Shown here piece by piece: positions 3,669 to 57,085 of a DNA stretch of 64,000 bases; the first letter of the stretch is position 1, and each line of letters begins with the position of its first letter. The DNA is from an uncultured Bacteroidales bacterium (lineage in GTDB: Bacteria > Bacteroidota > Bacteroidia > Bacteroidales > CAZLJX01), in NCBI GenBank assembly GCA_964559985.1, contig CAZLJX010000004.1, positions 24,571 through 88,570 on the forward strand, read 5' to 3'. A program made the translations under genes and the position numbers. The notes beneath the pieces were generated by a model, which was given only the letters and a program-made list of their open reading frames with translations, made no database searches and was not told where the DNA came from.

Positions 3669-3677
3669 TAAGCAATA

Positions 3678-4505
3678 ATGATGGTTCAGGACATAGGCAT
3701 AGTCGATACGAAAAAAATTATCAGTGTTATCAAAGATATTCACAACTTTGACCTGAGTAATTTTGCCCTGACCACATTTAAACGCAGGGTGTTGAGAATT
3801 ATTCAGGTATTTAATTTCCAGAATGTTACAGTTTTAATTTCCAAGCTCGAAGAAGATAAAAGCTTTTTTGAAAAATTTCTGGATGAATTGCTGATTGAAC
3901 ATACTGAGTTATTTCGTGACCCTTCCCTGTGGCGTATTCTCAGAGATGTGTACATTCCTGAATTAAGACGCAACAGGGATGTGAAAGTCTGGTTTCCGAT
4001 CACCACCTCGGGAGATGAAGTGCATACTTTTACCATTGTTTTAAAAGAATTAGGATTACTTGATGAATTCAGAATTCTGGTAACAGGCTTTTCAGAGCGA
4101 ATCCTTAACCAGGTAAAGGCCGGTGGCCAGTACGATCTGAAAAAAATTGAAGCAAGTGAGGCAAATTATAAAAGGTATTCCGATCGTTTTGAATTATCTG
4201 ACTATTTTACATCAAGCAACAGTAAAGCTGTTTTCGGCAGTGAATTATTGAAAAATACCGAATTTAAAGTCATCGATTCGGTTGAAACAGAACCTCCGGG
4301 TGGTTTCAAACTTGTAATCTGCCGCAATCAGCTTCTCTATTTCAACCAGTCACTGCACGAAATAGTAGTTAAAAACCTGGCTGAATCGTTAATCGGCTCT
4401 GGTTATCTGGTTCTTGGTTCAAAAGAAAATATGGAAGGTTGCTCAGCTTCAAGCCGTTTTATTCTGATAAATCGTGAAGAAAAAATTTATAAAAAAAAGG
4501 CATAA
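3678..4505 (+). CDS. Divergent CheR paralogue with degenerate SAM-binding motifs
   Basis: 275 aa. It keeps TELFRD and ICRNQLLYF, but motif I reads VWFPITTSGDEVHT and the ATDI acidic post-I position reads VTGF. It starts 9 nt after CheR1. Confidence 0.75.
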   Translation: MMVQDIGIVDTKKIISVIKDIHNFDLSNFALTTFKRRVLRIIQVFNFQNVTVLISKLEEDKSFFEKFLDELLIEHTELFRDPSLWRILRDVYIPELRRNRDVKVWFPITTSGDEVHTFTIVLKELGLLDEFRILVTGFSERILNQVKAGGQYDLKKIEASEANYKRYSDRFELSDYFTSSNSKAVFGSELLKNTEFKVIDSVETEPPGGFKLVICRNQLLYFNQSLHEIVVKNLAESLIGSGYLVLGSKENMEGCSASSRFILINREEKIYKKKA

Positions 4506-4508
4506 ATA

Positions 4509-5069
4509 ATGATTAAAGCAATTATCATAGGTGGTTCAGCGGGAAGTTTCCAGGTAGTTACGCGCATTCTATCAGCCCTGCCTGCAGGTTATCCCATTCC
4601 GGTTTTTCTTTGCCTTCACCGGTTAAAACATGTCAGGTCAGGATTTACTGAAGCACTCTCTATAAAAGCCAACCTCCCGATTGTTGAACCCGATGACAAA
4701 GACCCGATCAAACCAGGGAAAATCTATCTTGCTCCGGCTAATTACCATATGTATATTGAGCTTGGCAACAAATTTGCCCTTTCAACCGAAGAGCCGGTAA
4801 ATCATTCGAGGCCATCGATAGATTTATCATTCTTTTCAGCTTCATATTCCTATAAAAACAAATTAATCGGAATAATTCTTTCAGGAGCCAACAAGGATGG
4901 TGCTTTGGGACTGAAAAGCGTCAAAGATTCGGGAGGTATTGCTATTGTTCAGGATCCCAAAGAATGCCAGGTGCCTACCATGACAACTGCATCGCTCAGG
5001 GCTACTAACGTTGATTATATCTTTAAAACCAATGAAATAATAAATTATCTGCTTAAATTGCAATTTTAA
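4509..5069 (+). CDS. cheB: CheB-type protein-glutamate methylesterase, catalytic domain only (no receiver)
   Basis: 186 aa. IIIGGSAGS (Ser nucleophile region), CLHRLKH (His region) and LSGANKDGALG (Asp region). There is no N-terminal REC domain. Confidence 0.85.
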   Translation: MIKAIIIGGSAGSFQVVTRILSALPAGYPIPVFLCLHRLKHVRSGFTEALSIKANLPIVEPDDKDPIKPGKIYLAPANYHMYIELGNKFALSTEEPVNHSRPSIDLSFFSASYSYKNKLIGIILSGANKDGALGLKSVKDSGGIAIVQDPKECQVPTMTTASLRATNVDYIFKTNEIINYLLKLQF

Positions 5070-5071
5070 TA

Positions 5072-5839
5072 ATGGAAACGCTGAGAAACCATAAAGCATT
5101 TATGTATTTTTTATACCTCATTTTTTTTGTGGTTGCAGTATGGCTGTTTTTTAAATTATTGCCTAACCATCAAACCGGTTCAAAGTTTGATAGTATAATG
5201 GTAATTATTCTTTGGTTGGCAGGAACAGCGTTTTTTATCTTTTCATTGTTAAACACTCAACCTGAAAAAGAGATACAGAATATTGATGACAGCCATGAGC
5301 AACTGGAATCAAAGGTTGAAGACATGGTGAAGGAAACCGCCCAGCAATTATCGCAGACACGAAAAATGCAACTGGAAAAAATTTCAAATCATATTTTCAA
5401 TTCACTCAACCATTTGACAAACCGGGAAACATTTGCTGAAAAATTCCTGATTAACCTGGCACGTGAATTCGAACTTGTTCAGGCACTGATATTCTGGAAT
5501 AAACCCGGAGAAGAACTTTACGAAGTATTAGCAACCTATTCATACTACCGCGAAGAAAAACCCGAAGCATTGCACCCGGGCATTGGCCTTTCGGGACAGG
5601 CTATCAAAGATAAGAAAGCAATGTTTGTCAGTGATGTTCCTGAAAAATACGGAAAAATCATTTCGGGTCTGGGAGCTTCAAAACCGCTTTTTTTAGGATT
5701 AATCCCAGCTATCGAAAATGAAACAGTAACTGGGTTGATTGAAGTAGCATCGTTTGTTGATTGGACTGAAGAACAACAATATATTCTGGAAGAACTGACC
5801 AATATAGCAGCAAAAAAAATTGCAGCATTAAATGCATAA
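5072..5839 (+). CDS. Membrane-anchored coiled-coil/GAF-domain protein
   Basis: 255 aa. Two N-terminal hydrophobic helices, a charged helical linker and a C-terminal GAF-like region (GLSGQAIKDKKAMFVSDV...TGLIEVASF). It starts 2 nt after the CheB stop. Confidence 0.7.
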   Translation: METLRNHKAFMYFLYLIFFVVAVWLFFKLLPNHQTGSKFDSIMVIILWLAGTAFFIFSLLNTQPEKEIQNIDDSHEQLESKVEDMVKETAQQLSQTRKMQLEKISNHIFNSLNHLTNRETFAEKFLINLAREFELVQALIFWNKPGEELYEVLATYSYYREEKPEALHPGIGLSGQAIKDKKAMFVSDVPEKYGKIISGLGASKPLFLGLIPAIENETVTGLIEVASFVDWTEEQQYILEELTNIAAKKIAALNA

Positions 5840-5846
5840 ATGAAAT

Positions 5847-8477
5847 ATGGGTTCAAATAAACATATAGATTTTTTTATTCGCAATGTCTTACTTAAAACC
5901 ATTGGAAAAATCCAATTCCCTATTGGCGGTGTATTGTTTGGTTTTCTGTTTATTCTGGCCGGTATTTTAATTGAATATTTCATCAGGGATTATCCTTTCA
6001 CTTTAAATGCCATAGCATTAATGCATGGTCAGAATCCGTTGCTTTATATAATTGATTTTGCACCCATTATTTTAGGCATGGCTAGCGTCTTTTTCAGGAG
6101 AAATTTTTATTTCCGTCTTTCTGAACAGGAAAAACTATTGGCCGAAAAAGAGGAGCTAATCAAGAAAAATGCACTCATTGCCCGTAAAATAGGCGAAGGT
6201 GATTTATCATTCAATAAAGAAGACATTGAAACTGATGACCAGATTGGCAATGCACTCCTGGTAATGCGTGATAATCTATTGACAACCAAGCTGAAAGAAA
6301 ACGAACAAAGCTGGATTGCTGCCGGCAAAGAAAAAATATCAAATATTTTACGACTTCATACAGACCTCAATGTTCTCTCATACGAAACCCTGGTGAACCT
6401 GATAAACTATATTAAAGTTATTCAAGGAGCCTTTTATATTTATGATGAAGAACAGAATATCCTGACCAATATGGCCACCTATGCCTATAACCGGCGCAAA
6501 TATATCAAACAGGAATTCCGCATAGGGCAAGGTCTTATAGGACAGGCAGCCTATGAAATGGGAACCATTTTCCGCCGGCAGATTCCAGAAGATTATATAA
6601 GCATTACTTCAGGAATTCTGGGTGACCAGAAACCTTCAGCCATATTGATAGTACCTTTAATCAGTGATGATAAACTTCAGGGTGCCCTCGAATTTGCCTC
6701 CATCAAAGACGATATTACTCCTTTAAAAATAAAATTTGTCGAAGAACTGAGCGATATCATAGCCCGTACTATTTTTAACCTGAAAGTCAGTGCCAAAACC
6801 ACCAAACTACTTCAGGATGCCCAGAAAATGACTGAAGAACTGAAGGAGAATGAAGAAGAGCTCAGGCAGAATGCAGAAGAAATGAGGGCTACTCACGAGG
6901 AACTTGAAAAATCGAACGTAAAACTTGAACACCAGGTTCTTGAAGTTGAAAATGCGCAGAAAAGGTTACATTCACTGCTCGAAAATGCCTCTGAAATTAT
7001 CTCTATCTACGACGAAAACCTGAAACTTACCTACGAAAGCCCGTCGGTTACCAATATCTTAGGGTACACCCCTGAAGAAATGATGGAAGGAAAAGACTTT
7101 GAACGTCTGTCGACCAAAGGGGAAACCGACATGAAAGAGATGTTCAATGAGCTGATTAAAAATCCCACCGAAACATATACCATCCAATACACTTACATGA
7201 AAAAGGATGGTAAAAAAATATTTATCGAAGCAACCGGACGAAATCTGCTGCATGACCCTGCAATAAACGGAATCATTATTAATTCGCGCGATATCACCGA
7301 ACGGAAAAGAGCCGAAAAAGAGGAGCGTATGAAAAGCAAAATGCAATCGCTCTCCGAAAACTCGCCCGACATGATTATCCGCCTGAGCCCCGCTGGTCAG
7401 TTTTTCTATGCCAACCCGATTGTAAAAATTTTTACCGGGGTCGATACCAACGAGGTAATGAATAAAACCATTGAAGAAGTTAACTTTAACGAACAGATTG
7501 TTACCTTTTTCAAAGATACCATCAAGCAAATAGTCAAGAACCAGACTAAAATCAATATTGAAATTACTTTTCCGACCAATTTCGGAAATCGTATCATGCA
7601 GGTAAATGCCATTCCGGAATTTAACGAAGAAAAAGAACTTGAAAGTGTACTTTTTGTAGCCCACGACATTACAGAGCGTAAAAATATTGAACTTGAAATA
7701 CAGGAAAAAAACAAAAAAATCACCGAAAGCATTAATTATGCCGAACGTATTCAAAGCTCAATACTGCCCGATACAAAATATATACAGGAATTTCTGCCAA
7801 AATCATTTATTTTTTACAAACCCCGCGATGTGGTAAGCGGCGATTTTCCATGGTTTTTCAAAAAAGAAGAAGACATTTACATAGCCGTTGTCGATTGCAC
7901 CGGGCATGGCGTTCCGGGAGCATTACTTTCATTTATAGGCTATTTCCTGCTCAATAATATTGTTGATCATGATTATGACTGGACTGCCGGAGAAGTGCTC
8001 GATCATCTGCATCAGAATGTAAGACGCACTTTGAAACAGGACCGTGCCGATGCCAATGCCCGTGATGGGATGGATATTGCCCTGGTAAAAATAAACCTGC
8101 AAAAAAACAAATTGCAGTATAGTGGTGCACACAGGCCTTTATATCTGCTGCGCAAAAGCGAGCTTACCGAATTTGAAGGCAACCGCAAAGCCATTGGTGG
8201 CATTCCGCATGCAAAAAAACCCGAAAGCAGTTTTGTTAATCATGTGATAGAAATTACCCCTGGCGATAAAGTATTTTTCTTTTCCGATGGCCTTACCGAC
8301 CAGTTGGGCGGACCCGACCGTCAGAAATATTCTCCCCGCCGGATAAGGGAAATAATTATTGAAAATTCAGATTTTTCAATGACACAATTTTCTAATTATT
8401 TTGCAAGAGATTTTAAAAAATGGAAAGGCGACAACAAACAAATTGATGATGTATTGCTTATTGGCATTGAATTTTAA
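5847..8477 (+). CDS. Membrane sensor PP2C (SpoIIE/RsbU-type) serine phosphatase with HAMP-like, GAF and two PAS domains (SiaA-like)
   Basis: 876 aa. N-terminal TM helices, GDLSF...DDQIGNAL..MRDNL (HAMP-like), a GAF domain (GLIGQAAYEMGTIF) and two PAS blocks each ending DIT(E)RK. The PP2C motifs are VSGDFPWF, VDCTGHGVPGALLS, DGMDIALV, FFFSDGLTDQ and DDVLLIGIEF. Confidence 0.9.
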   Translation: MGSNKHIDFFIRNVLLKTIGKIQFPIGGVLFGFLFILAGILIEYFIRDYPFTLNAIALMHGQNPLLYIIDFAPIILGMASVFFRRNFYFRLSEQEKLLAEKEELIKKNALIARKIGEGDLSFNKEDIETDDQIGNALLVMRDNLLTTKLKENEQSWIAAGKEKISNILRLHTDLNVLSYETLVNLINYIKVIQGAFYIYDEEQNILTNMATYAYNRRKYIKQEFRIGQGLIGQAAYEMGTIFRRQIPEDYISITSGILGDQKPSAILIVPLISDDKLQGALEFASIKDDITPLKIKFVEELSDIIARTIFNLKVSAKTTKLLQDAQKMTEELKENEEELRQNAEEMRATHEELEKSNVKLEHQVLEVENAQKRLHSLLENASEIISIYDENLKLTYESPSVTNILGYTPEEMMEGKDFERLSTKGETDMKEMFNELIKNPTETYTIQYTYMKKDGKKIFIEATGRNLLHDPAINGIIINSRDITERKRAEKEERMKSKMQSLSENSPDMIIRLSPAGQFFYANPIVKIFTGVDTNEVMNKTIEEVNFNEQIVTFFKDTIKQIVKNQTKINIEITFPTNFGNRIMQVNAIPEFNEEKELESVLFVAHDITERKNIELEIQEKNKKITESINYAERIQSSILPDTKYIQEFLPKSFIFYKPRDVVSGDFPWFFKKEEDIYIAVVDCTGHGVPGALLSFIGYFLLNNIVDHDYDWTAGEVLDHLHQNVRRTLKQDRADANARDGMDIALVKINLQKNKLQYSGAHRPLYLLRKSELTEFEGNRKAIGGIPHAKKPESSFVNHVIEITPGDKVFFFSDGLTDQLGGPDRQKYSPRRIREIIIENSDFSMTQFSNYFARDFKKWKGDNKQIDDVLLIGIEF

Positions 8478-9542: not shown

Positions 9543-12500
9543 ATGAGTGAAGAGATTCTAAAAGCGTTGATGCAACTGTTTGCCATCATTGCAAAACAAG
9601 ATGAAGGCGTTGAATCAAACGAAATTGAATATGTCAGTAATTTCCTGAATCAACAGTTAAATGCCGAAGCTGCCCGGGAATATCTTCAACTTTTTTATGA
9701 ACATGCCGGTTTAAAAGAAGGAAAAGAATCTGAAGGAAAAGAAAAAGACGAACCGAAACTTACCTCGGTAAAAGACTCGGTTAGAATTCTGGGTATTTGC
9801 AAAAAAATCAATAAAAAACTTACCCAGGAACAAAAAGTGGTTGTGCTTGTCCGCCTTTGGGAATTGGTGAATACCGACCGAAAATTTTCCGACCAGCGCA
9901 TGGCCATTATTAACACCGCAGCCGAAGTATTTAATATTACTACGGAAGAATTTAAAAGCGTTGAATCTTTTGTCATTAAAGATGATCCTGCTTCACTCGA
10001 CACCAGCAATATACTCATAATAAACGACAAAGAGAAAACCGGCGAGTTATCGAAACACATCCGTACCGAAGCACTCGACGGACTCCTGTTGATTTTACAG
10101 ATAAAAAGCGTTGATCTGTACTTTCTGCGATATACCGGACATGAAGAAATATTTCTGAATGGTTTACCTGTAAATTCAAAGCGTATTTATTTGTTTGCCA
10201 ACGGAAGTGCTATCCGCCTGCCAAAAGGCAAACCCATTTATTACAGCGACGTTGTTGCCCGGTTTATGGCCGATATTACTTCGGCGCATATTTCTTACAA
10301 TGTCAGAAACCTTGAATACCGCTTCCCAAATGGTGCTCTGGGATTGCGAAATATTAACCTTTCTGAAGAACACGGGAAACTTATTGGCATCATGGGTGCC
10401 AGCGGGGCAGGAAAAACTACCCTGCTGAATGTTTTAACCGGTATTGAAAATCCTTCTGCCGGCGAAGTGGTCATTAACAGTATTAACCTTCATACACAAC
10501 ACGATAAAATTGAAGGTGTTATCGGTTACATTCCACAGGACGATCTGCTTATTGAAGAACTTACTGTTTTCGAAAACCTGTATTATAACGCCAAACTTTG
10601 TTTTAAAGATAAAACCGAAGAAGAATTAATTTCGCTGGTCGATAAAACACTGGCCAGTTTGGGCCTGCTTGACCGTAAAATGCTCAAAGTGGGTTCACCC
10701 CTCAATAAAACCATCAGCGGCGGACAACGAAAAAGGCTTAATATTGCCCTTGAACTCATTCGTGAACCATCCATCCTGTTTGTCGATGAGCCTACTTCGG
10801 GGCTTTCGTCACGCGATTCGGAAAATGTAATGGACCTGCTGCGTGAACTTGCACTGAAAGGAAAATTGATTTTTGTTGTCATTCACCAGCCATCGTCCGA
10901 CATTTATAAAATGTTTGACAAAATGATTATTCTCGATACAGGTGGATACCTTATATATTATGGTAACCCCGTTGAAGCGGTAACATTTTTCAAAAAGGCT
11001 GATATGCAGATTAACAGCGATGTTGGCGAATGCCCGACCTGTGGTAGCGTAAATCCGGAACTTATTTTCAATATCATAGATGCACAGGTTGTAGATGAAT
11101 TCGGCCGTTACACCGACAAACGAAAGGTGATGCCCGAACAGTGGGAAAATCTTTATGGCAGTAAGATAAAACCAGAAATTATTGAAGATGCACATGAAGA
11201 ACCTCCACGGTCACTCGATATTCCAAACTGGATAAACCAGTTTAAAATATATACCATCCGCGACTTTGTTTCAAAAATCAGCAACCGGCAGTATATAATT
11301 CTTAACCTGCTCGAAGCACCCGTACTGGGCCTGATATTATCATTCCTTATCCGCTACATTGCCGATCCGAGTTCGAAAATTTATATTTTCAGGGATAACG
11401 AAAACATTCCTCCATATATCTTCATGAGCCTTATTGTTGCCATGTTTCTCGGATTTATGGTGAGTGCCGAAGAAATTTTCCGCGACCGTAAAATCCTTAA
11501 GCGGGAAGCATTTCTCAACCTGAGCCGGTCAAGTTATCTTGTCTCAAAAGTGCTTATTATGCTTATCATTTCTGCCATACAAAGTTTATTCTATGTCATG
11601 GTAGGCAATCTAATATTGGGCATCCACGGCTTGTGGTTCGAATACTGGTGGGCATTGTTTACCATTGCAGCTTTCTCGAATATGCAGGGACTCAATATTT
11701 CATCCGCTTTCAATTCGGCGGTTACCATTTATATTATGATTCCGCTGCTTATGATTCCGCAGATGGCCTTAGGAGGGGCTATGTTCAGTTTCGACAAACT
11801 AAACCGGGTTATCGGCAGCGTTGATAAAGTGCCCATGGTAGCTGAATTTATTGCCACTAGGTGGTCATACGAAGCCCTCATGGTTAGACAGTTCAAAGAC
11901 AATAAATTTGAAAAAAAATATTACGAGCTCGAAAAAGATATCAGTGTGTCTGACTTCAAGCAGGTATATTATTTTGCCGAAATTACCGAACGGCTCGACT
12001 TTGTTAGCCAGAATATTAAAAGCAAAGATCCCGAAATAAAAAAACAGGTACTCATGGACCTGGCACTTTTAAAACATGAACTTGCAAAAGAAAAAAGAAA
12101 AGTGCCCGAAATTCAGTTTAATTTTATTGATTCACTTACCTATGATGTTTTTAATGACTATGTTGCATACAATACCAATGATTATATAGAGAACCTGAAA
12201 TCATACTACAGCCAGAAATTTGAAGCTGCCACCGATAAAAAAGAAACTATCATAGAATACCTTAACGAAAACCGCCCTGGCCTGTATAACAAAACACGAA
12301 ATCATTACCATAATGAAGCCGTCCAGGAAATTGTTACCAATCTTTACGAAAAAAATAAAATCATCCGTTATAAAGAAAAACTGGTACAACAATCCGATCC
12401 CATTTTTCAGGACCCCGAACCGGAAGGATTTTTAAGTTTCAGGGCGCATTTTTATGCACCTAAAAAACATTTTGCCGGAAAATATTTCGATACATTCTGG

Positions 12501-12596
12501 TTTAACCAGGTTATTGTATGGATTATGACCATTTTACTTTATATTGCCCTTTATTATGATGCCCTGAAAAAACTATTAAATTTATCGGGAAAATAA
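9543..12596 (+). CDS. ABCG/ABC-2-type transporter (fused ATPase and permease) with a ~270-aa N-terminal non-transporter extension
   Basis: 1017 aa. Walker A GASGAGKTTLLN, signature SGGQRKRLNIA, Walker B ILFVDEPTSGLS, then a multi-TM ABC-2 region. The N-terminus (LMQLFAIIAKQDEGVESNEIEYV) looks TerB-like by eye, but this is unverified. Confidence 0.85.
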   Translation: MSEEILKALMQLFAIIAKQDEGVESNEIEYVSNFLNQQLNAEAAREYLQLFYEHAGLKEGKESEGKEKDEPKLTSVKDSVRILGICKKINKKLTQEQKVVVLVRLWELVNTDRKFSDQRMAIINTAAEVFNITTEEFKSVESFVIKDDPASLDTSNILIINDKEKTGELSKHIRTEALDGLLLILQIKSVDLYFLRYTGHEEIFLNGLPVNSKRIYLFANGSAIRLPKGKPIYYSDVVARFMADITSAHISYNVRNLEYRFPNGALGLRNINLSEEHGKLIGIMGASGAGKTTLLNVLTGIENPSAGEVVINSINLHTQHDKIEGVIGYIPQDDLLIEELTVFENLYYNAKLCFKDKTEEELISLVDKTLASLGLLDRKMLKVGSPLNKTISGGQRKRLNIALELIREPSILFVDEPTSGLSSRDSENVMDLLRELALKGKLIFVVIHQPSSDIYKMFDKMIILDTGGYLIYYGNPVEAVTFFKKADMQINSDVGECPTCGSVNPELIFNIIDAQVVDEFGRYTDKRKVMPEQWENLYGSKIKPEIIEDAHEEPPRSLDIPNWINQFKIYTIRDFVSKISNRQYIILNLLEAPVLGLILSFLIRYIADPSSKIYIFRDNENIPPYIFMSLIVAMFLGFMVSAEEIFRDRKILKREAFLNLSRSSYLVSKVLIMLIISAIQSLFYVMVGNLILGIHGLWFEYWWALFTIAAFSNMQGLNISSAFNSAVTIYIMIPLLMIPQMALGGAMFSFDKLNRVIGSVDKVPMVAEFIATRWSYEALMVRQFKDNKFEKKYYELEKDISVSDFKQVYYFAEITERLDFVSQNIKSKDPEIKKQVLMDLALLKHELAKEKRKVPEIQFNFIDSLTYDVFNDYVAYNTNDYIENLKSYYSQKFEAATDKKETIIEYLNENRPGLYNKTRNHYHNEAVQEIVTNLYEKNKIIRYKEKLVQQSDPIFQDPEPEGFLSFRAHFYAPKKHFAGKYFDTFWFNQVIVWIMTILLYIALYYDALKKLLNLSGK

Positions 12597-12653: not shown

Positions 12654-13565
12654 ATGGATAAGCGTTTCATTTATCTTTTTTACAGTCTGCTGTTAATATT
12701 GTCTGCATATTCCTGTAACAATTCAGGCAGTTCTGATTCCGGAGATGTTGATATACCGGATTCCATTTTTGAGAAAAAACCTTTGCTGGTATCGAACGAA
12801 CAGATGGAAAACATCATCCAGAATATTTCGTCACCGGTTGAAATGGCTGCTTTGCTTAAAAATACAGGAGTTCCGTTTCAACGTAAAATTCTGGCATCAA
12901 CAAACAGGATTGATAAATTAAATACAAATTTCAAAAGAGCCCTTAACCTGGGTATTATGGGTGCCGATCTTGGATACCTGAATATGTATGAAAAAACAGG
13001 ATCAGTGATGGAAAACCTTTCATCTATCAAATCTTTATCGGAAGAATTAAAAATAGGGCAGTTTTTTGATTTCAGCACCATCAAGCGGCTTGCTATGAAT
13101 AGCGAAAACCTTGATTCATTGATGTATATTTCTGTTGCCAGTTTCAACAACATGGATGAATACCTGCGTAAGGTAAACCGTACAAACATCAGCTCACTGA
13201 TTGTAACCGGAATATGGATTGAAGGGATGTATCTTTCGACACAGGTGGCCAAAGAAGCACCAAAAAAAGAAATTGTTGAAAGGATAGGCGAACAGAAAAT
13301 CATACTAAACGACCTTTTAATTATTTTAAAAAATTACAGCAGCGACCGCAATTTTTATGAACTGGTACAGGATATTGAAAGAATAAAAAAAGAATACCAG
13401 GAGGTAAAAATTACTTATGAAGTTGGCGAGCCCGAATCAAAAGAGGTTGACGGGATGCTTATCATTGTTCAGAACGAAAAAAGTATTGTAACAATGAATG
13501 ACGAACAGCTCGTCAATATTACCCGCGTTGTTGAAGAAGTTCGTAACAAATTAATCAATATGTAG
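12654..13565 (+). CDS. Hypothetical lipoprotein
   Basis: 303 aa. Signal peptide with lipobox LSAYSC. No recognisable catalytic motif. Confidence 0.6.
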   Translation: MDKRFIYLFYSLLLILSAYSCNNSGSSDSGDVDIPDSIFEKKPLLVSNEQMENIIQNISSPVEMAALLKNTGVPFQRKILASTNRIDKLNTNFKRALNLGIMGADLGYLNMYEKTGSVMENLSSIKSLSEELKIGQFFDFSTIKRLAMNSENLDSLMYISVASFNNMDEYLRKVNRTNISSLIVTGIWIEGMYLSTQVAKEAPKKEIVERIGEQKIILNDLLIILKNYSSDRNFYELVQDIERIKKEYQEVKITYEVGEPESKEVDGMLIIVQNEKSIVTMNDEQLVNITRVVEEVRNKLINM

Positions 13566-17610: not shown

Positions 17611-20600
17611 ATGCAAATGAGAAAAGTACTTTATTTATTGATTCTAGCTATAAATTGGCTGGATCTTTTTCCGCAATCGGCTACAGTGACACTAAGGCCT
17701 CAGTATATAGATCTATCGTCTGCAACAGCGCAAAGTGGTGTATTAATGACTTTGTCATCCTATTCCAGTAATGATGCAAAGTATAGGCTTTATAACGGTG
17801 CCAATCAATACAATTGCTGGGATGGAACCCAATATGTTACATCAACCGCATATGCCAGCGGACCTTCAGTGCCAGGTACACCTACTACTTCTACAACATT
17901 CTGGATATTATTCCAGAGAGGTGCAAATAATGCTACTGCCGCTTCGTATCGCGACAGGCTTGGACCTGCATATTCTTCAAATTATCAAACTGTAGCATTG
18001 TCGGCAGCAACTTCAATTACAACTCCCTTTACTCTTAGCGGTAATGTTACTGCCGGAGGTGGAAATAACCTTGACGTTAAATACGCAGTACTTGGATGGT
18101 CAACAACAAATTTAATTACGGTTACATCAACCGATTTAACGACAGGTTCTTTTTCATTGGTAGCTCCTGATGGTACGACAATCGATAAAATTGAAATCAG
18201 AAAAACTAATAATACCAGCATAACAGAAAAAACCGGCTCATGGACAAGTACAGGTTCAGTAGGTAACATTTCTCTTGGATCAGTTTCAGATCCCGAACCC
18301 ACTAACCATGTGGAAAATCTTGATGTCATTATGCCTAATCCGGGCACTATGACGGTTAGCTACACTGAAAATGACGGAGCCCAACCTCCGCACGGCTACC
18401 TGATTATTGTTAATACATTACCAATAACCCCGCCAACAGATGGTGTTCCACAATCAAACGATAATGACCTCAGTTCAACCGGTGGTGTTATGAATGTCAG
18501 TCATGGAGTAGTTTCGGTAAATTTTTACAATCCTCTGCCTGGCCAAACTTATAATGTTACTGTTTACCCATATACAAATACCGGAGTTAGTATTGACTAT
18601 AAAACCGGTGGAGATGTTCCTGAAATTCAATTTGAAGCGCCTGCATTTACCGTAGCAAAATATTTTGACGATAATACCCAGGGGAATGCCATTGTTAAAG
18701 ATGAAGAAGGTGCCCAGTCATGGGGATTTTCAAGTGGATTTGCACGTATGAACGGCTATTCGGGTGCTTCTATTCCGAATACCGACTGGCTTATTCTGCC
18801 ACAGGTAAATCTTAGTGCCACCAGTTACCTGACTTTTATTACCCGCTGGCATTTTGGCAGCCTGGATGCCGATGATTACCTGAAACTGATGTATTCGCAG
18901 GATTATGACGGGACGGGAGCTCCATCAGGATTTACATGGAATGAAGTCAGTTTTAACATAGGAGCCGATAATGCATGGACAAACTCTGGCCCGATAAAAA
19001 TACCAGTAACCGGAAACACTTATATCGCATTTAAATATAAAAGTAATGATGGCGCCCGCCAGTGGGATGTTGACGAAGTACTTATTGCTTCACAAGTCGT
19101 GTTTACAGGTGCTTCAAGCAATGATATGTCTGATCCGGCCAACTGGACTGGTGGTGTTTTCCCTGAAACATTTTCGGTTGTTAAAATTGAAAATACCCTT
19201 GGCGTTATCAGCGGAACACTTGAATGTCAGCACATGATGATTGAGCCTGCAGGTAAATTAACTGTTAACGGAGGAGGTACACTCACAGTAAATGGTGAAT
19301 TATATATCAAAGCCAACGGAACAGGCAGAGGTTCATTTATTCCTTTGGGAACAGCTACCTATTCTACCGGTACCGTAGAAATATTTTTTGAAAATATGCT
19401 TCAAAACTACCATTTCTCTATTCCTGTTACTACTGCCAAGGCTAGTGTAATGGGTGACCTTAATGTAAACTTCCTGTATGAATACAATACAGCTGGTTCT
19501 TCATGGTCGCGCATCACCGATGGCAATGCCGATCTGGTAGCGGGTAAAGGATATGTTTATAAAAATACATCCGGCAGTTATACCGCTAAATTTACCGGAA
19601 CTATTGCCAACGGGACCATCAATCCTCCAGTGCTAAGCAATACTGGTAACAACTGGTGGCTGGTAGGTAATTCTTATCCCTCGGCTATTGATCTTGGCTG
19701 TGGCGACACTCCCATAGGTGGCTGGGTAATGACAGACCTTAGACCAACATTTTATACCCGCACCAATGGTGCCGTAGTTACTTATAACTGGACAGGCCCG
19801 GGAGGCGGGGTTAACGGAGGTAGCAGGTATTTTGCCAACAACCATGCAATATGGATTAAAGTTACCGGTGCAAGCCCGGCATTTACCATGGCAAATACTG
19901 TCAGGGTACATAACGATGTTACTTTCCTGAAAGCATCTGAAATAATGCCTGTTTTAAGGCTTTCGGCTGTTAACGGAGATTTCAGCGACGAAACCCTTAT
20001 CCGTTTCCATAGCAATTCGCTAACAGGATTGGACGATTATGACAGTGAAAAAATGCTGACCGAAGATACACGTTATGCAGAAATTTATACGATTTCAGAA
20101 AATAGCAAACTGGCAATCAATACCTACCCCGAAACAGGAGACCGCCTTGAAATACCTGTAGGTTTCCGTTGTAAAGCTGATGGCCAATATACCATCAAGG
20201 TTTCTGAAATGGCAAATTTCCCCGCTGATGTAACCATATTACTGGCCGATAATCAATTAAACAAAATTGTTGACTTGAACATAACCCAATCCTATGCCTT
20301 TTTCAGCACAGTTACCGATAACAGTTCACGTTTTACCCTATATTTCATCAAAGGCCTGGTACCCGACGACCTTAGCGGAGATAATGGCATAGCTGCCGGA
20401 ATGGGTGAAAATAACCAGAACAAAATTAAAATATATGGTTACAACAACCAGATTCTGGTGAGCACGCCCGAAACTTCCGGTAAAATTATGGTTTACGATT
20501 TAACCGGCAAACTGGTAACCGATGTTACCATGAACGGGAATAATTACAGCATCAACGTTGAAAACAAAGGATATTATATGGTTAAAGTTGCAACCAGTCA

Positions 20601-20634
20601 ACAGGTTATTACACGTAAAGTGTTTGTAAAATAA
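17611..20634 (+). CDS. Large secreted protein with a T9SS C-terminal sorting domain
   Basis: 1007 aa. Signal peptide, a central region resembling the choice-of-anchor J / MAM-like module (DWLILPQVNL...WDVDEVLI), and a C-terminus KIMVYDLTGKLV...GYYMVKVATSQQVITRKVFVK typical of Por/T9SS tails. Confidence 0.85.
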   Translation: MQMRKVLYLLILAINWLDLFPQSATVTLRPQYIDLSSATAQSGVLMTLSSYSSNDAKYRLYNGANQYNCWDGTQYVTSTAYASGPSVPGTPTTSTTFWILFQRGANNATAASYRDRLGPAYSSNYQTVALSAATSITTPFTLSGNVTAGGGNNLDVKYAVLGWSTTNLITVTSTDLTTGSFSLVAPDGTTIDKIEIRKTNNTSITEKTGSWTSTGSVGNISLGSVSDPEPTNHVENLDVIMPNPGTMTVSYTENDGAQPPHGYLIIVNTLPITPPTDGVPQSNDNDLSSTGGVMNVSHGVVSVNFYNPLPGQTYNVTVYPYTNTGVSIDYKTGGDVPEIQFEAPAFTVAKYFDDNTQGNAIVKDEEGAQSWGFSSGFARMNGYSGASIPNTDWLILPQVNLSATSYLTFITRWHFGSLDADDYLKLMYSQDYDGTGAPSGFTWNEVSFNIGADNAWTNSGPIKIPVTGNTYIAFKYKSNDGARQWDVDEVLIASQVVFTGASSNDMSDPANWTGGVFPETFSVVKIENTLGVISGTLECQHMMIEPAGKLTVNGGGTLTVNGELYIKANGTGRGSFIPLGTATYSTGTVEIFFENMLQNYHFSIPVTTAKASVMGDLNVNFLYEYNTAGSSWSRITDGNADLVAGKGYVYKNTSGSYTAKFTGTIANGTINPPVLSNTGNNWWLVGNSYPSAIDLGCGDTPIGGWVMTDLRPTFYTRTNGAVVTYNWTGPGGGVNGGSRYFANNHAIWIKVTGASPAFTMANTVRVHNDVTFLKASEIMPVLRLSAVNGDFSDETLIRFHSNSLTGLDDYDSEKMLTEDTRYAEIYTISENSKLAINTYPETGDRLEIPVGFRCKADGQYTIKVSEMANFPADVTILLADNQLNKIVDLNITQSYAFFSTVTDNSSRFTLYFIKGLVPDDLSGDNGIAAGMGENNQNKIKIYGYNNQILVSTPETSGKIMVYDLTGKLVTDVTMNGNNYSINVENKGYYMVKVATSQQVITRKVFVK

Positions 20635-20636
20635 TA

Positions 20637-20930
20637 TTGACTATTAAAATGACGCGCATTTATAAACATACAGGCCAGATGATGGTGAAAGAAATAGGCA
20701 ATGAAAAAATTCTTGTCCCCCTGCGCAGCAATGTGGCCGATATGGAACAGATTTATACCCTCAACGAAACAGCAGCTTTTATATGGGAACGCATGAATGG
20801 CAAACATTCAACCGATGAAATTGCCAGTCAGCTTGCTGATGAATACGATGTAAAGCTTGAAACTGCTGTTACCGATGTGGAAGAATTTGTAACTGAAATG
20901 CGTGATTTTCTTGAATTGATAAACGGATAA
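20637..20930 (+). CDS. PqqD-family protein (RiPP recognition element, lasso B1-like)
   Basis: 97 aa. The pattern ...EKILVPL......IYTLNETAAFIWERMNGKHSTDEIASQLADEYDV....AVTDVEEFV matches the PqqD fold. The track start is TTG at 20637; ATG at 20649 (MTRIYK) is more likely. Confidence 0.8.
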   Translation: MTIKMTRIYKHTGQMMVKEIGNEKILVPLRSNVADMEQIYTLNETAAFIWERMNGKHSTDEIASQLADEYDVKLETAVTDVEEFVTEMRDFLELING

Positions 20931-20948: not shown

Positions 20949-21098
20949 ATGCTTATGAAAATAGAAAAAAAGGCTTTAAAAAAGGTTTACTCAAAACCAG
21001 CCGTAGGTAAAATAAAAATCGACCGTGGTATTTCAATGGTGATGCAATCAGACCCTCCGGGCGACCCCGGGATGAAAACCGGAAACCCTTTTAAATAG
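20949..21098 (+). CDS. Candidate RiPP precursor peptide (49 aa), not in the ORF track
   Basis: ATG at 20949 to TAG at 21096-21098, translating to MLMKIEKKALKKVYSKPAVGKIKIDRGISMVMQSDPPGDPGMKTGNPFK. It starts 18 nt after the PqqD gene. The Lys-rich leader has a YSKPAV motif (compare the lasso-leader YxxPxL and the paeninodin YSKPSL). The C-terminal part is rich in Pro, Gly and Asp, and a strong hairpin follows. Confidence 0.55.
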   Translation: MLMKIEKKALKKVYSKPAVGKIKIDRGISMVMQSDPPGDPGMKTGNPFK

Positions 21099-21118
21099 AA
21101 TTTTTCAGGAATAAAAAC

Positions 21119-21151
21119 GGAGGTTTCGTCTTTGGCGAAACCTCTTTTTTT
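21119..21151 (+). terminator. Rho-independent terminator/attenuator directly after the precursor ORF
   Basis: GAGGTTTCG (21120-21128) pairs with CGAAACCTC (21136-21144). The 9-bp perfect stem has a 7-nt loop and is followed by T7 (21145-21151). Confidence 0.55.
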
Positions 21152-21175
21152 ATTTCTTTGCATATTATTAAAAAA

Positions 21176-22081
21176 ATGATCTGTTTCGAAAAAGCATTCC
21201 AACTCTGCATTGCCGGAGTAAATTTCAGGTTTAACCATGCTACGGGGCAATTCCGTCTTGCCCTGGAACAGTTTTACGAACATTTCGTTGTGCCCTGCGA
21301 TATTGCTCCGGATATTGTCATCGAAGTTAAACACGGAACTTCTGATTTTCTCAAAAACACCAGGCAAGTTTTCAGCGCTGAATTTGAACATGGTCTGCTT
21401 GAAAAAATTCAATACCGTTGGGCTATTTTTCAACCCGGGTATTGTATGGCATGCTATACCGATAAGAATGAACAAATACCTTATGTAACCTGCCTTCCGG
21501 GCAAGGATAATGAACCCTGGCAAATACAGGTTCAGACGCCCCGGATCATTTCCGGAAATTGCTGCCTTGAACCCCTGCCCTACCCTTTGGGCCCCCTGAT
21601 CATGTATCACTACTTTACACATCATAATGCTGTGATGCTTCATGCCTCAGGTATTTTTGACCAGGTTACGCAAAAAGGTTTCGTTTTCAGCGCTGTATCA
21701 GGAACTGGAAAAACTACCATGTCGCAATTGTGGGCTGAAAAAGGATGCACCGTGATAAACGACGACCGGCTGATCTTAAAAGCAGAAAATGAAAAAATTA
21801 CAATGTATAACAATCCGTTATATATCAAAGACATTCCAAGGAGTACACCGGTTTCGGCTATTTTTTTAATTCACCAGGCACCCGTTCACCAGATAAGGCG
21901 CATTGAAGGGGTTTCAGCCTTTGCCGGGCTGATGGCTTTCTGCATACAGCATCATTACGATAAAATTATGATGGAACTGCTGACCGGAACCCTTATACAA
22001 ATAATAGATAAAGTGCCGGTATATGAACTGGGTTTTGCATTGAACAGCAATATTGTTGATTATGTCAGAAACAATATCTGA
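21176..22081 (+). CDS. HPr-kinase-like (HprK C-terminal domain) putative peptide kinase
   Basis: MLHASGIFDQVTQKGFVFSAVSGTGKTTMSQLWAEKGCTVINDDRLIL matches the HprK-type P-loop and the following DD, as in lasso-peptide kinases and HprK-related kinases. ATG at 21176; the track start is TTG at 21158. Confidence 0.75.
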   Translation: MICFEKAFQLCIAGVNFRFNHATGQFRLALEQFYEHFVVPCDIAPDIVIEVKHGTSDFLKNTRQVFSAEFEHGLLEKIQYRWAIFQPGYCMACYTDKNEQIPYVTCLPGKDNEPWQIQVQTPRIISGNCCLEPLPYPLGPLIMYHYFTHHNAVMLHASGIFDQVTQKGFVFSAVSGTGKTTMSQLWAEKGCTVINDDRLILKAENEKITMYNNPLYIKDIPRSTPVSAIFLIHQAPVHQIRRIEGVSAFAGLMAFCIQHHYDKIMMELLTGTLIQIIDKVPVYELGFALNSNIVDYVRNNI

Positions 22082-22523
22082 AGGTACACTGGATTTGCTT
22101 GCCGTTGACCTGCTAAGGCAAGGCAGGAAATTGAAAATCAGGCTTTCGGGAGCCAGTATGTTTCCCTGCCTTGTAAGCAGCGATATGGCTGTTGTCATTC
22201 CGGCAGGCGAAAAAATTACCCGTGGCGATATAGTGGCATTTGCTTCTGGAGAAAAGGTTATTCTGCACAGGGTTAGAAAAATAACCAACAAAAACGTAAT
22301 CTGCAAAGGCGACAGCAATTGCTTTTATGACGAACCGGTTGAAACAGAAAATATTGCCGGAAAACTTCATCACATTGAGAGAAAGGGAAAAATCATGATG
22401 GTAAATAAACATCCATGGTTTATGTTTTGGAAATTTGTTACGGCTTTTTGCCCTTGTATTCCCCCTTTACTAAAAAAATGCTACCTTTATCTTCACAATG
22501 TCTATGGCAGAAAAACAGTATGA
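22062..22523 (+). CDS. S24/S26-family (signal-peptidase-I / LexA-like) serine peptidase
   Basis: LSGASMFPCL (Ser nucleophile motif GxSMxP), GDIVAF, HRVRKI...CKGDSN (Lys / GD motifs) and a hydrophobic C-terminal tail. It overlaps the kinase gene end by 20 nt. Confidence 0.7.
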   Translation: MSETISEGTLDLLAVDLLRQGRKLKIRLSGASMFPCLVSSDMAVVIPAGEKITRGDIVAFASGEKVILHRVRKITNKNVICKGDSNCFYDEPVETENIAGKLHHIERKGKIMMVNKHPWFMFWKFVTAFCPCIPPLLKKCYLYLHNVYGRKTV

Positions 22524-24288
22524 ACATATTTTGCGGTCAATAACACTGATCAGAAAACATAATCCATTTGTATTCAATTTTCTGGTTTTTTTATCTGTTA
22601 TTTCGGGTTTTGTTCCGTTGGTTACTGTATGGCTGATAAAACTTTTAATCGATTATTTGCTTAAAGCCATTGAAACACAGCATGGATTTGACACCACATT
22701 TTATTTTCTGATTGCAGCCACCACCCTAACTGTACTGCTGAGCCTGCTTCTTCACTCTTTGTTATTGTGGATAAGCGAGTTACATTCATCCAAACTTACA
22801 GGGAAGCTTTTTGATGAATTACATCGAAAATCAACCGGGCTTGGGTATCCGGTGTTTGAAAATCCGGGAGAGCAGGATGTGGCCTTTAGGGCACGTAACG
22901 AATTGGCATACAGACCTCATCGCCTTACCGGACAAATCATGAACTTTATTCAGGGTTTAACGGCATTTCTGACCTCTATATGGCTGGTAGCCTATCTTAA
23001 CCCATGGATGGCCATTGTTTTTTTTGCATTGATGATACCTGCCATCTGGGTAAGGTTAAATTATGCAAATCATGAATGGGAATGGAAAAGAAAAAAAACC
23101 CGCCTTGAGCGTAAAAATATGTATTTCGGGCGCATCCTTACCGATGCTGTATTTGCTAAAGAAATAAGGCTTTTCGGACTTTCTGATTACTTTACCCATG
23201 AATTTGGCAGGTCGTACAATACTTTATTAAAAGAAAAAAACCAGTTTTTGCGCCTGAAGAACCTGACTGAGCTCAAAGGTTATCTGTTTATTTCACTGGT
23301 TTTTATGGTTGCCTTGCTTTATGTGGCGCACAAAGCCATTCATAAATCCATTACTCCGGGCGATGCTGTGATGTATATGCTGGTGTTTCAACGAACATTA
23401 ACTTTTATAAGGACCATCATGACATCCATCACAGGCATTTATGAAGATACCCTGGGAATGAAAAACCTGTTTGAATTTTTAAGCCGTCCTGAGCCGGAAA
23501 AAACACCTGTCAATGAAACCAATCAACCACAACTCCATCATAATATTATTATTCAAAATGTTTCATTTACCTATACATCTCAAAAACAAACAGTTTTTAA
23601 AAATCTGAACCTTGAAATCCCGGCAGGGAAAACCACGATTCTTGTCGGGGAAAACGGCTCGGGAAAAACCACCCTGGTAAAATTGCTGGCCCGTTTATAT
23701 CATCCCGACTCAGGCACTATTTATTTTGATAACACCGATATCCGTTCATTTCCGGAAAAACAGTACCGCGAATTTGTGAGTGTTTTGTTTCAGGATTTTG
23801 TATTGTATCATCTTTCGGCACGCGAAAACATTGCTTTTGGTAAAATAAGTGAACTTAACAACGATGATCGCCTAAGACAGGCAGCTAAAAAAGCTGGTAT
23901 TTCAGATGCCATTGAATCAATGCCTTCATCCTATGAGACAACCCTTGGATTTCTTGATGAAAACAGTGTGGAGCTAAGTATGGGACAATGGCAGCGACTG
24001 GCTATGGCACGCAGTTTTTTTAAAGATTCGGAAATCATTTTATTAGACGAACCCACCAGTGCCTTGGATGCTTTTCATGAAGCCATGCTTTTTCAGACAT
24101 TAAAGGAACTTGTCAGGAATAAAACAGCCATTATTGTAAGCCACAGGCTTTCGCTGGCACGAAACGCCGATCATATTATCCTGCTGACCAGCCAGGGAGA
24201 TACTGAAACCGGAACCCACTCCCAGCTGATGCAAAAAAACGGAACTTATGCAAGAATGTTTTTATTGCAATCGCAATTATACATATAG
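22498..24288 (+). CDS. ABC exporter, fused permease and ATPase (type I exporter, McjD/MsbA-like); no C39 peptidase domain
   Basis: 596 aa. Six N-terminal TM helices, Walker A GENGSGKTTLVK, signature LSMGQWQRLAMAR and Walker B ILLDEPTSALD. It overlaps the peptidase gene by 26 nt. Confidence 0.9.
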   Translation: MSMAEKQYEHILRSITLIRKHNPFVFNFLVFLSVISGFVPLVTVWLIKLLIDYLLKAIETQHGFDTTFYFLIAATTLTVLLSLLLHSLLLWISELHSSKLTGKLFDELHRKSTGLGYPVFENPGEQDVAFRARNELAYRPHRLTGQIMNFIQGLTAFLTSIWLVAYLNPWMAIVFFALMIPAIWVRLNYANHEWEWKRKKTRLERKNMYFGRILTDAVFAKEIRLFGLSDYFTHEFGRSYNTLLKEKNQFLRLKNLTELKGYLFISLVFMVALLYVAHKAIHKSITPGDAVMYMLVFQRTLTFIRTIMTSITGIYEDTLGMKNLFEFLSRPEPEKTPVNETNQPQLHHNIIIQNVSFTYTSQKQTVFKNLNLEIPAGKTTILVGENGSGKTTLVKLLARLYHPDSGTIYFDNTDIRSFPEKQYREFVSVLFQDFVLYHLSARENIAFGKISELNNDDRLRQAAKKAGISDAIESMPSSYETTLGFLDENSVELSMGQWQRLAMARSFFKDSEIILLDEPTSALDAFHEAMLFQTLKELVRNKTAIIVSHRLSLARNADHIILLTSQGDTETGTHSQLMQKNGTYARMFLLQSQLYI

Positions 24289-24344
24289 GTTTTTAGCCGG
24301 CAATTTTATATCTTGTACCATGCTTTTCAGCCAAAATATTGACT

Positions 24345-25061
24345 ATGAAAATCAAATGCATTATTGTTGATGACGATCCGGCAGCACTTGCTGTTTTGGA
24401 AAATTATGTAAAAAAAATACCGGTGCTCGATTTGCTTGCCCGTTGCGAAAATGCCCTCGAAGCAATTGCTTTTCTCGGAAATAATAAGGTTGATTTAATC
24501 ATTCTCGATATCGAAATGCCCCATCTTACAGGAATTGATTTTTTAAAAACCCTTTCACATCCTCCTAAAGCTATCATTACTTCGGCCAATAAAGAATATG
24601 CACTCGAAGGTTTTGAACTCAATGTACTGGATTATTTGCTTAAACCTATCACCTTTGAGCGATTGCTGAGGGCTGTCAACCGATTCCCGTCTCCGGAAGC
24701 CGAACAAAAACCTGCATCTGGCGCTGATGAACAGGATTGCATCTATGTAAAAGAGAATAAAAAAATTGTCAAAATCTGTATTAAAGATATCCTTTATATC
24801 GAAAGCCTTAAAGATTATATCAAAATTCACCTTGCCGGAAAATCGGTTGTCACCAGACAAACCCTTTCATCTATTGAAGCAGCCCTTCCGGACGGAAAAT
24901 TTCTCCGCATTCATAAATCCTTTATTGTATCGCTCGAAAAAATTGATGCATATACCGCTGTGAGTATCGAAATAGCAAAGAAAGAACTTCCCGTTGGCCG
25001 TCAGTACAAAGAACAGGTACATCAGAAACTGGGAATTTCCATTTCTGGCCAGGAAGATTAA
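24345..25061 (+). CDS. LytTR-family DNA-binding response regulator
   Basis: Receiver motifs IIVDDD, ILDIEMPHLTG and LLKP, plus a C-terminal LytTR domain (IYVKENKKIVKI...ILYIESLKDYIKIHL...FLRIHKSFIV). ATG at 24345; the track start is TTG at 24339. Confidence 0.9.
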   Translation: MKIKCIIVDDDPAALAVLENYVKKIPVLDLLARCENALEAIAFLGNNKVDLIILDIEMPHLTGIDFLKTLSHPPKAIITSANKEYALEGFELNVLDYLLKPITFERLLRAVNRFPSPEAEQKPASGADEQDCIYVKENKKIVKICIKDILYIESLKDYIKIHLAGKSVVTRQTLSSIEAALPDGKFLRIHKSFIVSLEKIDAYTAVSIEIAKKELPVGRQYKEQVHQKLGISISGQED

Positions 25062-57055: not shown

Positions 57056-57085
57056 CTAACCTTGGTTTGTTACAAAAGAATAAAC

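Follow-up and report, generated by a model that had tools for sequence, protein, structure and literature searches.

In a 64,000-nucleotide stretch of DNA from an uncultured Bacteroidales bacterium (contig CAZLJX010000004.1, positions 24,571 to 88,570 of the forward strand; the whole stretch is referred to as the window hereafter), a small open reading frame (ORF) at 20949–21098 on the plus strand was confirmed to be a real, conserved precursor-peptide gene. [quoted passage not shown] In this cassette, the genes for a RiPP recognition element (RRE), the precursor, a kinase, a protease, and an exporter lie in this order on the same strand and are tightly packed (Table 1). In the original prediction, the ORF was presented as a 49-codon frame with a YSKPAV leader motif, possible ring-forming residues of a lasso peptide, and its own terminator hairpin. 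The frame and the motif are present as described, and a homologue family, synteny, and purifying selection, which speak for a precursor gene, were all found; the lasso reading was rejected for the reasons given below.

The ORF begins with ATG, and its translation is exactly the 49-residue peptide quoted originally. The true start is likely the ATG at 20955 (MKIEKK...), not that at 20949, because the relatives open with MKxxKK and public gene calls use the Met at 20955: the resulting 47-residue version, which starts at the third codon, is already annotated as a gene on six public contigs. The residue numbers used here (Y14, S29, S34, D35, etc.) are those of the 49-residue numbering from 20949. 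Judged by its sequence, the peptide is a genuine RiPP precursor with a YxxPxV motif of the kind bound by PqqD-type RREs.

A single-sequence search with the window peptide retrieved only the peptide itself, and its relatives emerged through synteny and profiles alone. We examined 80 loci drawn from 245 kinase relatives in GTDB species-representative genomes and searched every stop-to-stop segment in them with profiles. The homologues whose presence in syntenic Bacteroidota loci had been in question were thus found: 34 of the 80 loci contain a total of 46 small ORFs with homology to the peptide. They lie nearly always on the cassette strand and mostly just upstream of the PqqD gene, often as 2–4 tandem copies. 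When 5.8 billion proteins were searched with a 26-member precursor profile, at least 356 protein clusters scored E ≤ 0.01; all are 45–91 residues long, lack a Pfam domain, and are named ‘hypothetical’. The databases searched give the family neither a name nor an annotation, and the literature search did not turn it up.

At least 161 distinct homologous peptides, again all ‘hypothetical’, were obtained, and a clear pattern of conservation was found among them. The conserved columns are Tyr (160 of 161), Pro (160), Asp (161), Ile (159), Ser (157), Leu/Met (161), and Ser/Thr (161), which correspond to Y14, P17, D25, I28, S29, M32, and S34 in the window peptide; the PPGDPG and NPFK boxes follow. 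The family pattern is KKxYxKPx[VI]xK[IV]x[IL]D[NS][ED]IS[LM][VQ][ML]x[ST], and then a Pro/Gly-rich stretch. A C-terminal box, xP[YFLM][KRQNDHM] (e.g., NPFK or DPYK), is found in 139 of the 161 peptides, and the near-orthologues P0159 and P0212 retain the whole C-terminal half (ISMVMQS.PPGDPGMK.GNP). The comparison of the window peptide with a 74%-identical copy gave a ratio of nonsynonymous to synonymous substitution rates (dN/dS) of 0.18, with different codons at 13 of the 32 identical residues. The precursor family is under purifying selection.

This copy (locus L091, 263–400) is a precursor gene standing alone, with its own terminator and without a cassette within 5 kb. The opposite arrangement is seen at locus L090 (8001–11192), which carries the closest relative of the kinase (47% identity): protease and exporter genes adjoin it, and neither an RRE nor a precursor gene is present. 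The precursor and the RRE can, therefore, sit apart from the kinase, protease, and exporter in the genome, and this is one of the differences of the Bacteroidota form from the LPP clusters.

A perfect 9-bp stem followed by T7 had been described behind the ORF, and it is present: the hairpin consists of GAGGTTTCG, a loop, and CGAAACCTC, followed by T7, and our scan lengthens the stem to 12 pairs. The folding energy of the 66-nt hairpin segment was −27.3 kcal/mol (z = −6.9), and none of 200 shuffled sequences was equally stable. The design with a terminator directly behind the precursor was recovered in the relatives as well, where a hairpin and a T-run within 110 nt of the stop codon follow 22 of the 46 family ORFs, as compared with 24 of 460 random windows (5%; Fisher p = 1e-13). 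The stand-alone copy of L091 likewise has a hairpin and a T-run after the gene. The precursor's own terminator is thus a family trait.

The enzymes of the cassette are to be compared with those of the LPPs of Bacillota (Popov et al., Nat Commun 2026, PMC13381572). The LPP clusters code for LppS, a SipW-like signal peptidase I (SpI) of the archaeal type with the catalytic residues S29, H68, and D93; LppB, a discrete RRE; LppK, a kinase of the HprK-like type; an uncharacterized NTP (nucleoside triphosphate) transferase; as well as an MsbA-like exporter, without a cyclase (PMC13381572). For the direct comparisons, the LPP protein sequences in the Supplementary Data of that paper were used. The window cassette resembles this set in having a discrete RRE of the YxxP-binding type, an HprK-like kinase, an SpI-like peptidase, and an MsbA-like exporter, and in having no cyclase. 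The closest PDB matches of the window RRE were TfuB1, PqqD, and LppB/PbaB1, while its matches to the lasso and pyrroloquinoline quinone PqqD models of NCBIfam were below the cut-offs. Its alignment with LppB is gapless over 47 residues, and N39, D76, and F80 correspond to N33, D70, and F74 of LppB, which hold the leader Pro and Tyr (PMC13381572). In the crystal structures, LppB and the lasso B1 RREs bind [Y/W]xxPx[V/L] (PMC13381572).

In the kinase family, for which the Pfam label PF27840 is precomputed, H156, S158, SGxGK (175–179), D196, and D197 are invariant; we take H156, SGxGK, and D196–D197 to be the His, the P-loop, and the catalytic Asp pair of HPrK/P. The AlphaFold2 model of the window kinase has a predicted local distance difference test (pLDDT) score of 93 and matches the catalytic domains of PEPCK and HPrK/P, so that an HprK-like kinase fold is confirmed at the level of the model. 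Among the word-index candidates from the 5.8 billion proteins, 98 relatives of the kinase were listed, and their named sources were mostly Bacteroidota. A PqqD gene adjoins the kinase gene, just upstream, in 76 of the 80 loci; an SpI-like protease gene follows the kinase in 67, and an ABC exporter gene follows the protease in 56.

The window protease showed 30% identity to LppS over 115 residues (BLASTP, E = 2e-17), and its S32, H69, and D90, which are invariant in 44 of 44 relatives, align with the catalytic S29, H68, and D93. SipW, the archaeal/ER-type SpI of Bacillus subtilis, belongs to the same protease subfamily, and the GxSMxP box of the Ser, the HR box of the His, and the GD...D element are shared. 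SipW processes TasA and TapA and cuts the Sec signal peptides of exported proteins; in contrast, the window protease, like LppS, is linked with an RRE and a leader that lacks signal-peptide features. PDB sequence searches with the kinase and with the protease gave no matches. No C39 peptidase domain was found in the exporter in the Pfam and NCBIfam scan. In the window, the protease and exporter genes share 26 nt, read in different frames. Some Bacteroidota relatives have the two as a single protein of 743–747 residues, in which the SpI-like protease forms the N-terminal part and the ABC exporter the rest (locus L080, 6830–9043; Paludibacter propionicigenes WP_013444635.1, from Supplementary Data 1 of PMC13381572), a layout analogous to that of the C39-peptidase-containing bacteriocin exporters.

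Table 1 Features of the cassette and its surroundings in the window
Feature	Position	Strand	Remarks
T9SS (type IX secretion system)-secreted protein, 1007 aa	17611..20634	+	signal peptide and Por_Secre_tail; immediately upstream of the RRE gene
PqqD-family discrete RRE	20637..20930	+	PF05402, E = 1.4e-18; probable start ATG 20649
Precursor peptide gene	20955..21098	+	47 aa from the ATG at 20955; stop codon 21096-21098
YSKPAV, predicted RRE-binding leader motif (Y14, P17, V19; residues 14-19)	20988..21005	+	Y 160/161, P 160/161
D25-R-G-I-S29, local version of the DNEIS box	21021..21035	+	D 161/161, I 159/161, S 157/161
Predicted core MVMQSDPPGDPGMKTGNPFK	21036..21095	+	PPGDPG box and C-terminal NPFK box
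Ser34, predicted phospho-acceptor	21048-21050	+	column Ser/Thr in 161/161 (154 S, 7 T)
Intrinsic-terminator-like hairpin and T7	21119-21151	+	21 nt past the stop codon
HprK-like (Pfam ScmC, PF27840) kinase, 301 aa	21176..22081	+	HprK_rel_B and PEPCK matches over the P-loop region
SipW/archaeal-type SpI-like protease, 153 aa, predicted leader peptidase	22062..22523	+	TIGR02228 sigpep_I_arch, 50.4 bits; Peptidase_S24
MsbA-like ABC exporter (transmembrane and nucleotide-binding domains)	22498..24288	+	ABC_membrane and ABC_tran; MsbA is the top NCBIfam match
LytTR response regulator	24339-25061	+	directly after the exporter
Y_Y_Y/PAS hybrid histidine kinase, 1323 aa	25186-29157	+	follows the LytTR gene

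The precursors themselves are also partly alike. The LPP precursor consensus is YxxPxVLxHQxIxFET/xxS, where the slash marks the cut; removal of the leader after T-1 depends on the RRE, and LppK puts several phosphates on Ser3 of the core (PMC13381572). Both precursors have an N-terminal KxYxxPxV, a hydroxyl residue at Tyr+15, a conserved Ser just downstream of it, a variable tail rich in Pro, Gly, and Asn, and a C-terminal [ND]P[YF]K-like box; the segment from the Tyr to the hydroxyl residue is 16 residues long in both, namely, YSKPAVGKIKIDRGIS in the window and YARPMVLSQQPVRFET in LppA. The frequent presence of LPP clusters in capsule loci (PMC13381572) also has a counterpart here: a polysaccharide locus lies near the window cassette, as described below. 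A different kind of likeness is seen with the polyphosphorylated linear RiPP phospeptin from ‘Ca. Eudoremicrobium’, a ribosomal end product that stays linear and keeps its phosphate groups (Paoli et al., Nature 2022, PMC9259500), as is proposed for the window peptide. The enzymology of phospeptin is unrelated, however: its context is lanthipeptide-synthetase-like, a dehydrated form was considered for it (PMC9259500), and it has no PqqD RRE, HprK-like kinase, or SpI-like protease.

The gene set was observed directly, and so was the conservation of residues and of the terminator; from these, we infer the following pathway by analogy. The precursor would be co-transcribed with the upstream RRE gene and probably also with the gene for the T9SS-secreted protein, and most transcripts would end at the hairpin, so that the precursor would be in excess over the K, S, and T enzymes. 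The PqqD-type RRE would bind the leader via Y14-x-x-P17-x-V19, as suggested by its conserved contact residues. Like LppK, the kinase would phosphorylate a conserved Ser once or several times at the expense of ATP, and Ser34 is the most likely acceptor. With guidance from the RRE, the membrane-associated Ser/His/Asp peptidase would then cut after Ser29 (DRGIS/MVMQS) and release a 20-residue core, MVMQ(pS)DPPGDPGMKTGNPFK, which would leave the cytoplasm through the ABC exporter.

We have less confidence in the exact sites of cleavage and phosphorylation than in the assignment to the LPP class. Ser29 is predicted to be the last residue of the leader (−1), because its spacing from the Tyr (15) equals that from Y-16 to T-1 in LppA. 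Within the family motif, the predicted cut is KKxYxKPx[VI]xK[IV]x[IL]DNEIS/L[VQ][ML]xS, with NP[FY]K at the C-terminus. Truncated family members bear on the same point: seven peptides (three from locus L039 and four from locus L074) end at the second conserved Ser/Thr or at most three residues past it. If the cut were after the second Ser, these peptides would have no core, while a cut after Ser29 would leave cores of 5–7 residues with the Ser/Thr near the C-terminus. The LppA-like spacing and the truncated members thus argue together for a cut after Ser29 and a phosphate on Ser34.

Several points weigh against the assignment to an LPP-type system. The LPPs are called restricted to Bacillota (PMC13381572), while the host here is a Gram-negative member of the Bacteroidota. 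The kinase is likened to LppK by family and fold. The box that follows YxxPxV is DNEIS-LxLxS in the window family and HQxIxFET-xxS in the LPPs, and the acceptor Ser would be at core position +5 instead of +3. In hhalign with LppA, only KKxYxxPxV was aligned, with a probability of 1%, and the PDB yielded nothing meaningful when it was searched for the LppA leader with the profile of the peptide. Cleavage may, alternatively, occur after Ser34, where [ML]-x-S/ resembles F-E-T/. No NTP_transf_5 homologue was found in the whole 64 kb by tblastn with a Parapedobacter protein as the query. Finally, 46 of the 80 related loci have no recognizable precursor within 6 kb, and a search for a second precursor family in these loci, by regular expressions and all-against-all clustering of small ORFs, gave only off-frame shadows and a small helix-turn-helix (HTH) protein. 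The split loci L090 and L091 may explain this: in the loci without a recognizable precursor, the precursor gene is probably unlinked, as in these two.

With regard to the host range, Supplementary Data 1 of PMC13381572 contains two Bacteroidota SpI–RRE pairs, which belong to an unstudied cluster of the sequence similarity network and whose precursor is given as ‘ND’; one of them is locus L080. With regard to the NTP transferase, some relatives have the complete LPP set: an NTP_transf_5 homologue was found by tblastn in 27 of the 80 related loci, and the Parapedobacter locus additionally has LicD, cytidylyltransferase, and polysaccharide genes. In this locus (L087, identical to L039, from a Parapedobacter metagenome-assembled genome; 7275–14185), three tandem precursors of 30–32 residues end right after the conserved Ser, and two of them are called as genes. 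A MatE exporter replaces the ABC exporter there, and NTP_transf_5, LicD, and cytidylyltransferase genes are followed by sugar-modifying genes, a set that hints at a phosphodiester-type decoration, e.g., phosphocholine or polyol-phosphate. An HTH-like protein of about 67 residues (MNKFERESYK...SERSIKR...) is conserved downstream of the ABC gene in nine loci without a recognizable precursor (L047, L058, L060, L067, L068, L073, L078, L079, and L082), where it may be a dedicated regulator.

The alternatives to an LPP-type precursor can be weighed with the same data. That the ORF is not a gene, but a chance ORF or the shadow of an antisense ORF of 218 residues (20987–21643), has a negligible probability. 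The ORF is short, the region is AT-rich, and frames of such a length do occur by chance; against this stand the 161 distinct homologues with invariant residues, the dN/dS of 0.18, and the syntenic position. The antisense ORF, which the original prediction had named as a possible refutation, was rejected as the real gene: it has no match in Pfam or NCBIfam, it overlaps two conserved plus-strand genes (those for the peptide and the kinase), and the orthologous antisense frame of L091 is interrupted by a stop codon.

The lasso precursor of the original prediction, whose isopeptide ring would join G27 or S29 with D35, is only slightly less remote and must be called highly improbable. The leader YxxPxV and the discrete PqqD RRE are compatible with it, the lasso PqqD models are the best NCBIfam matches of the RRE, though below their cut-offs, and HprK-like kinases are present in the paeninodin-type lasso clusters. 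Indeed, the paeninodin-type and Bsf-type lasso systems (padeA/B1/B2/C/K) share with the cassette a discrete PqqD RRE for [Y/W]xxPx[L/V], an HprK-like kinase, and an ABC exporter, but their cyclase, B2 cysteine protease, and C-terminal Ser phosphorylation were not found in the window cassette. A lasso-peptide cluster was rejected on the absence from the cassette of both an Asn-synthetase-like macrolactam cyclase and a transglutaminase-like B2 protease; an SpI-like protease stands in the place of B2, as in the LPPs, and the gene set as a whole matches theirs. No lasso cyclase was found in 90 related loci with the window AsnB homologue as the probe, and no B2-type domain was found by the domain scan in the cassette proteins, window ORFs shorter than 200 residues elsewhere not being scanned. 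Beyond the cassette, the scan covered the ORFs of at least 200 residues from 29 kb to the window end and two ORFs upstream; five upstream ORFs of 255–876 residues (2826–8477 and 12654–13565) lay outside it. The only Asn-synthase homologue in the scanned ORFs is at 57053–58957. It begins with MCGICG, has both GATase domains, and scored 465 bits with the AsnB model TIGR01536 (cut-off 267) and 249 bits with the lasso-cyclase model NF033535 (cut-off 525); its sequence thus marks it as a genuine glutamine-hydrolyzing AsnB among the glycosyltransferases of the polysaccharide locus. Its role as the cyclase was rejected, since it is 36 kb away and fails the lasso-cyclase model.

The peptide itself also disagrees with a lasso structure. 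G27, S29, and D35 are physically present as had been noted, but the column of D35 holds Asp in only 49 of the 161 peptides, no conserved acidic residue is found at ring distance across them, and the predicted core opens with Met or Leu and not with Gly, Ala, Ser, or Cys. When the leader was tested against the lasso pattern (YxxPxL and Thr at −2), YSKPAV was present, and a conserved Ser, not Thr, was found at the equivalent distance from the Tyr. The remark that the penultimate leader Thr is missing was thus correct as to the Thr, but the near-invariant S29 (157 of 161) at Tyr+15 serves as its equivalent. The earlier expectation of a chemistry different from the C-terminal Ser phosphorylation of lasso peptides was borne out. 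A SynChlorMet (Scm) cassette was also considered: the window kinase carries the Pfam label ScmC, the RRE matches the ScmD model at E = 1.5e-9, and both cassettes combine an HprK-like protein and a PqqD-like one. The Scm cassette, as known from the TIGRFAM annotation, consists of ScmC, ScmD, and two radical SAM/SPASM enzymes, without an SpI-like protease. The window cassette has no radical SAM domain, and its score with ScmD was 37.9 bits (cut-off 100), and this candidate was rejected.

The protein upstream of the RRE gene deserves attention, since precursor genes are often found beside the gene of such a T9SS cargo, which is another difference from the LPP clusters. Homologues of its C-terminal module of about 500 residues (about 19111–20631) were found in 21 of the 80 loci (e.g., L017, L021, L031, L059, and L088), 18 of which also hold a precursor (Fisher p = 4e-6, phylogeny not corrected for). 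In 14 loci, the stop codon of the T9SS-protein gene is less than 300 bp from the precursor gene. The N-terminal parts of the proteins that carry the module vary (M36 peptidase, choice-of-anchor J, and PATR). The module is predicted to be a beta-sandwich chain ending in a T9SS C-terminal domain (CTD) (model pLDDT 86). No Pfam domain precedes the CTD in it, and a fold search with the module gave only generic beta-sandwich chains and T9SS CTDs, from which no function could be inferred. The T9SS protein is a possible partner of the peptide.

On the downstream side, a polysaccharide biosynthesis locus of about 30 kb (30613–61332, plus strand) lies about 6 kb past the cassette. It codes for a Wzx-like flippase, glycosyltransferases of the GT2 and GT1/4 families, PGA_cap, two ATP-grasp enzymes, a DegT aminotransferase, a hexapeptide acyltransferase, a methyltransferase, a deacetylase, AsnB, and a FemAB-like protein. 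The nearness of the cassette to this locus may be meaningful, because the LPP clusters of Bacillota have been reported in capsule loci. In the space between, the LytTR regulator and the Y_Y_Y/PAS kinase are candidate local regulators. These neighbors are not conserved with the system: similar genes were found only at L090 (LytTR) and at L088/L089 and L015 (Y_Y_Y sensor).

These surroundings allow different views of what the product does. The LPP authors regarded polyphosphorylation as an intermediate, and the final product and its function were not identified (PMC13381572). The Ser-phosphate might accordingly be an early handle, which is extended (by a nucleotide, a sugar-phosphate, or a polyol-phosphate) or links the peptide to envelope polymers or surface proteins, so that the function would be tied to the neighboring polysaccharide and T9SS genes and not to a free phosphopeptide. 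We consider this unlikely. The authors' view, the presence of LPP clusters with an NTP transferase in capsule loci, the polysaccharide locus 6 kb downstream, the 27 relatives with NTP_transf_5, the one with LicD and cytidylyltransferase beside the cassette, and the precursor genes directly after T9SS cargo genes in 14 loci are in line with it. It is opposed by the lack of an NTP_transf_5 homologue in the window, by the two-component system and an opposite-strand gene that separate the cassette from the polysaccharide locus, and by the T9SS module being very common (6886 clusters in the 50% library), so that its adjacency may be incidental or merely transcriptional.

It is still less probable that the peptide is a secreted pheromone, and that the hybrid histidine kinase and the LytTR regulator next to the cassette sense it and in turn control the cassette, in parallel to the Gram-positive bacteriocin and quorum-sensing loci. 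The position of these two genes directly after the exporter suggests such a model; L090, with the closest kinase relative, has a PAS kinase and LytTR pair 3.5 kb upstream, and at L088, a Y_Y_Y sensor and response regulators lie upstream of the cassette. However, LytTR occurs in one related locus and Y_Y_Y sensors in about two independent loci (L088 and L089 are the same genes). The model concerns only the function of the product and is compatible with LPP-like biosynthesis.

A broader idea is that the Bacteroidota cassette is a distinct system, whose linear, phosphorylated peptide has a functional tie to the cell surface; it is speculative, and we give it only a small chance. The idea comes from the conserved NP[FY]K box, the adjacency to T9SS genes, and the frequent NTP-transferase, LicD, and polysaccharide neighbors. 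The peptide might act as a phospho-linked tag or anchor that connects peptide, glycan, and T9SS cargo, or else as a signal by which their production is controlled. If this is true, LPP-type chemistry would gain its first function, and RiPPs and type IX secretion would be linked in a new way.

If the assignment to an LPP-type system is right, the enzyme logic in question, i.e., RRE-guided Ser phosphorylation by an HprK-like kinase and leader removal by a signal-peptidase-like enzyme, would be widespread in Bacteroidota, as the 245 kinase relatives in species-representative genomes and the at least 356 precursor clusters suggest. LPPs were described only in 2026, from Bacillota, and the Bacteroidota have a precursor family of their own. 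With its two near-invariant Ser residues and conserved core boxes, the family provides a second, independent sequence set for mapping the recognition by the kinase and the protease, and its substrates are compact, with a predicted core of 20 residues here and of 5–7 residues in some relatives. The newly noted association with genes for T9SS cargo, polysaccharides, LicD, and cytidylyltransferase could lead to the function. The family is absent from Pfam and NCBIfam, and genome-mining tools will therefore miss these precursors.

Two further ORFs in the window are worth recording. In the polysaccharide locus, an ORF of 209 residues (40032–40658) has a partial match to an AbiEii-type nucleotidyltransferase (E = 3e-11), and no homology to the NTP_transf_5 proteins of the related cassettes was found at the threshold used. 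Upstream, 9543–12596 codes for a protein of 1017 residues, in which an N-terminal TerB domain, an ABC ATPase, and an ABC-2 membrane domain are combined; this fusion is unusual and is unrelated to the cassette.

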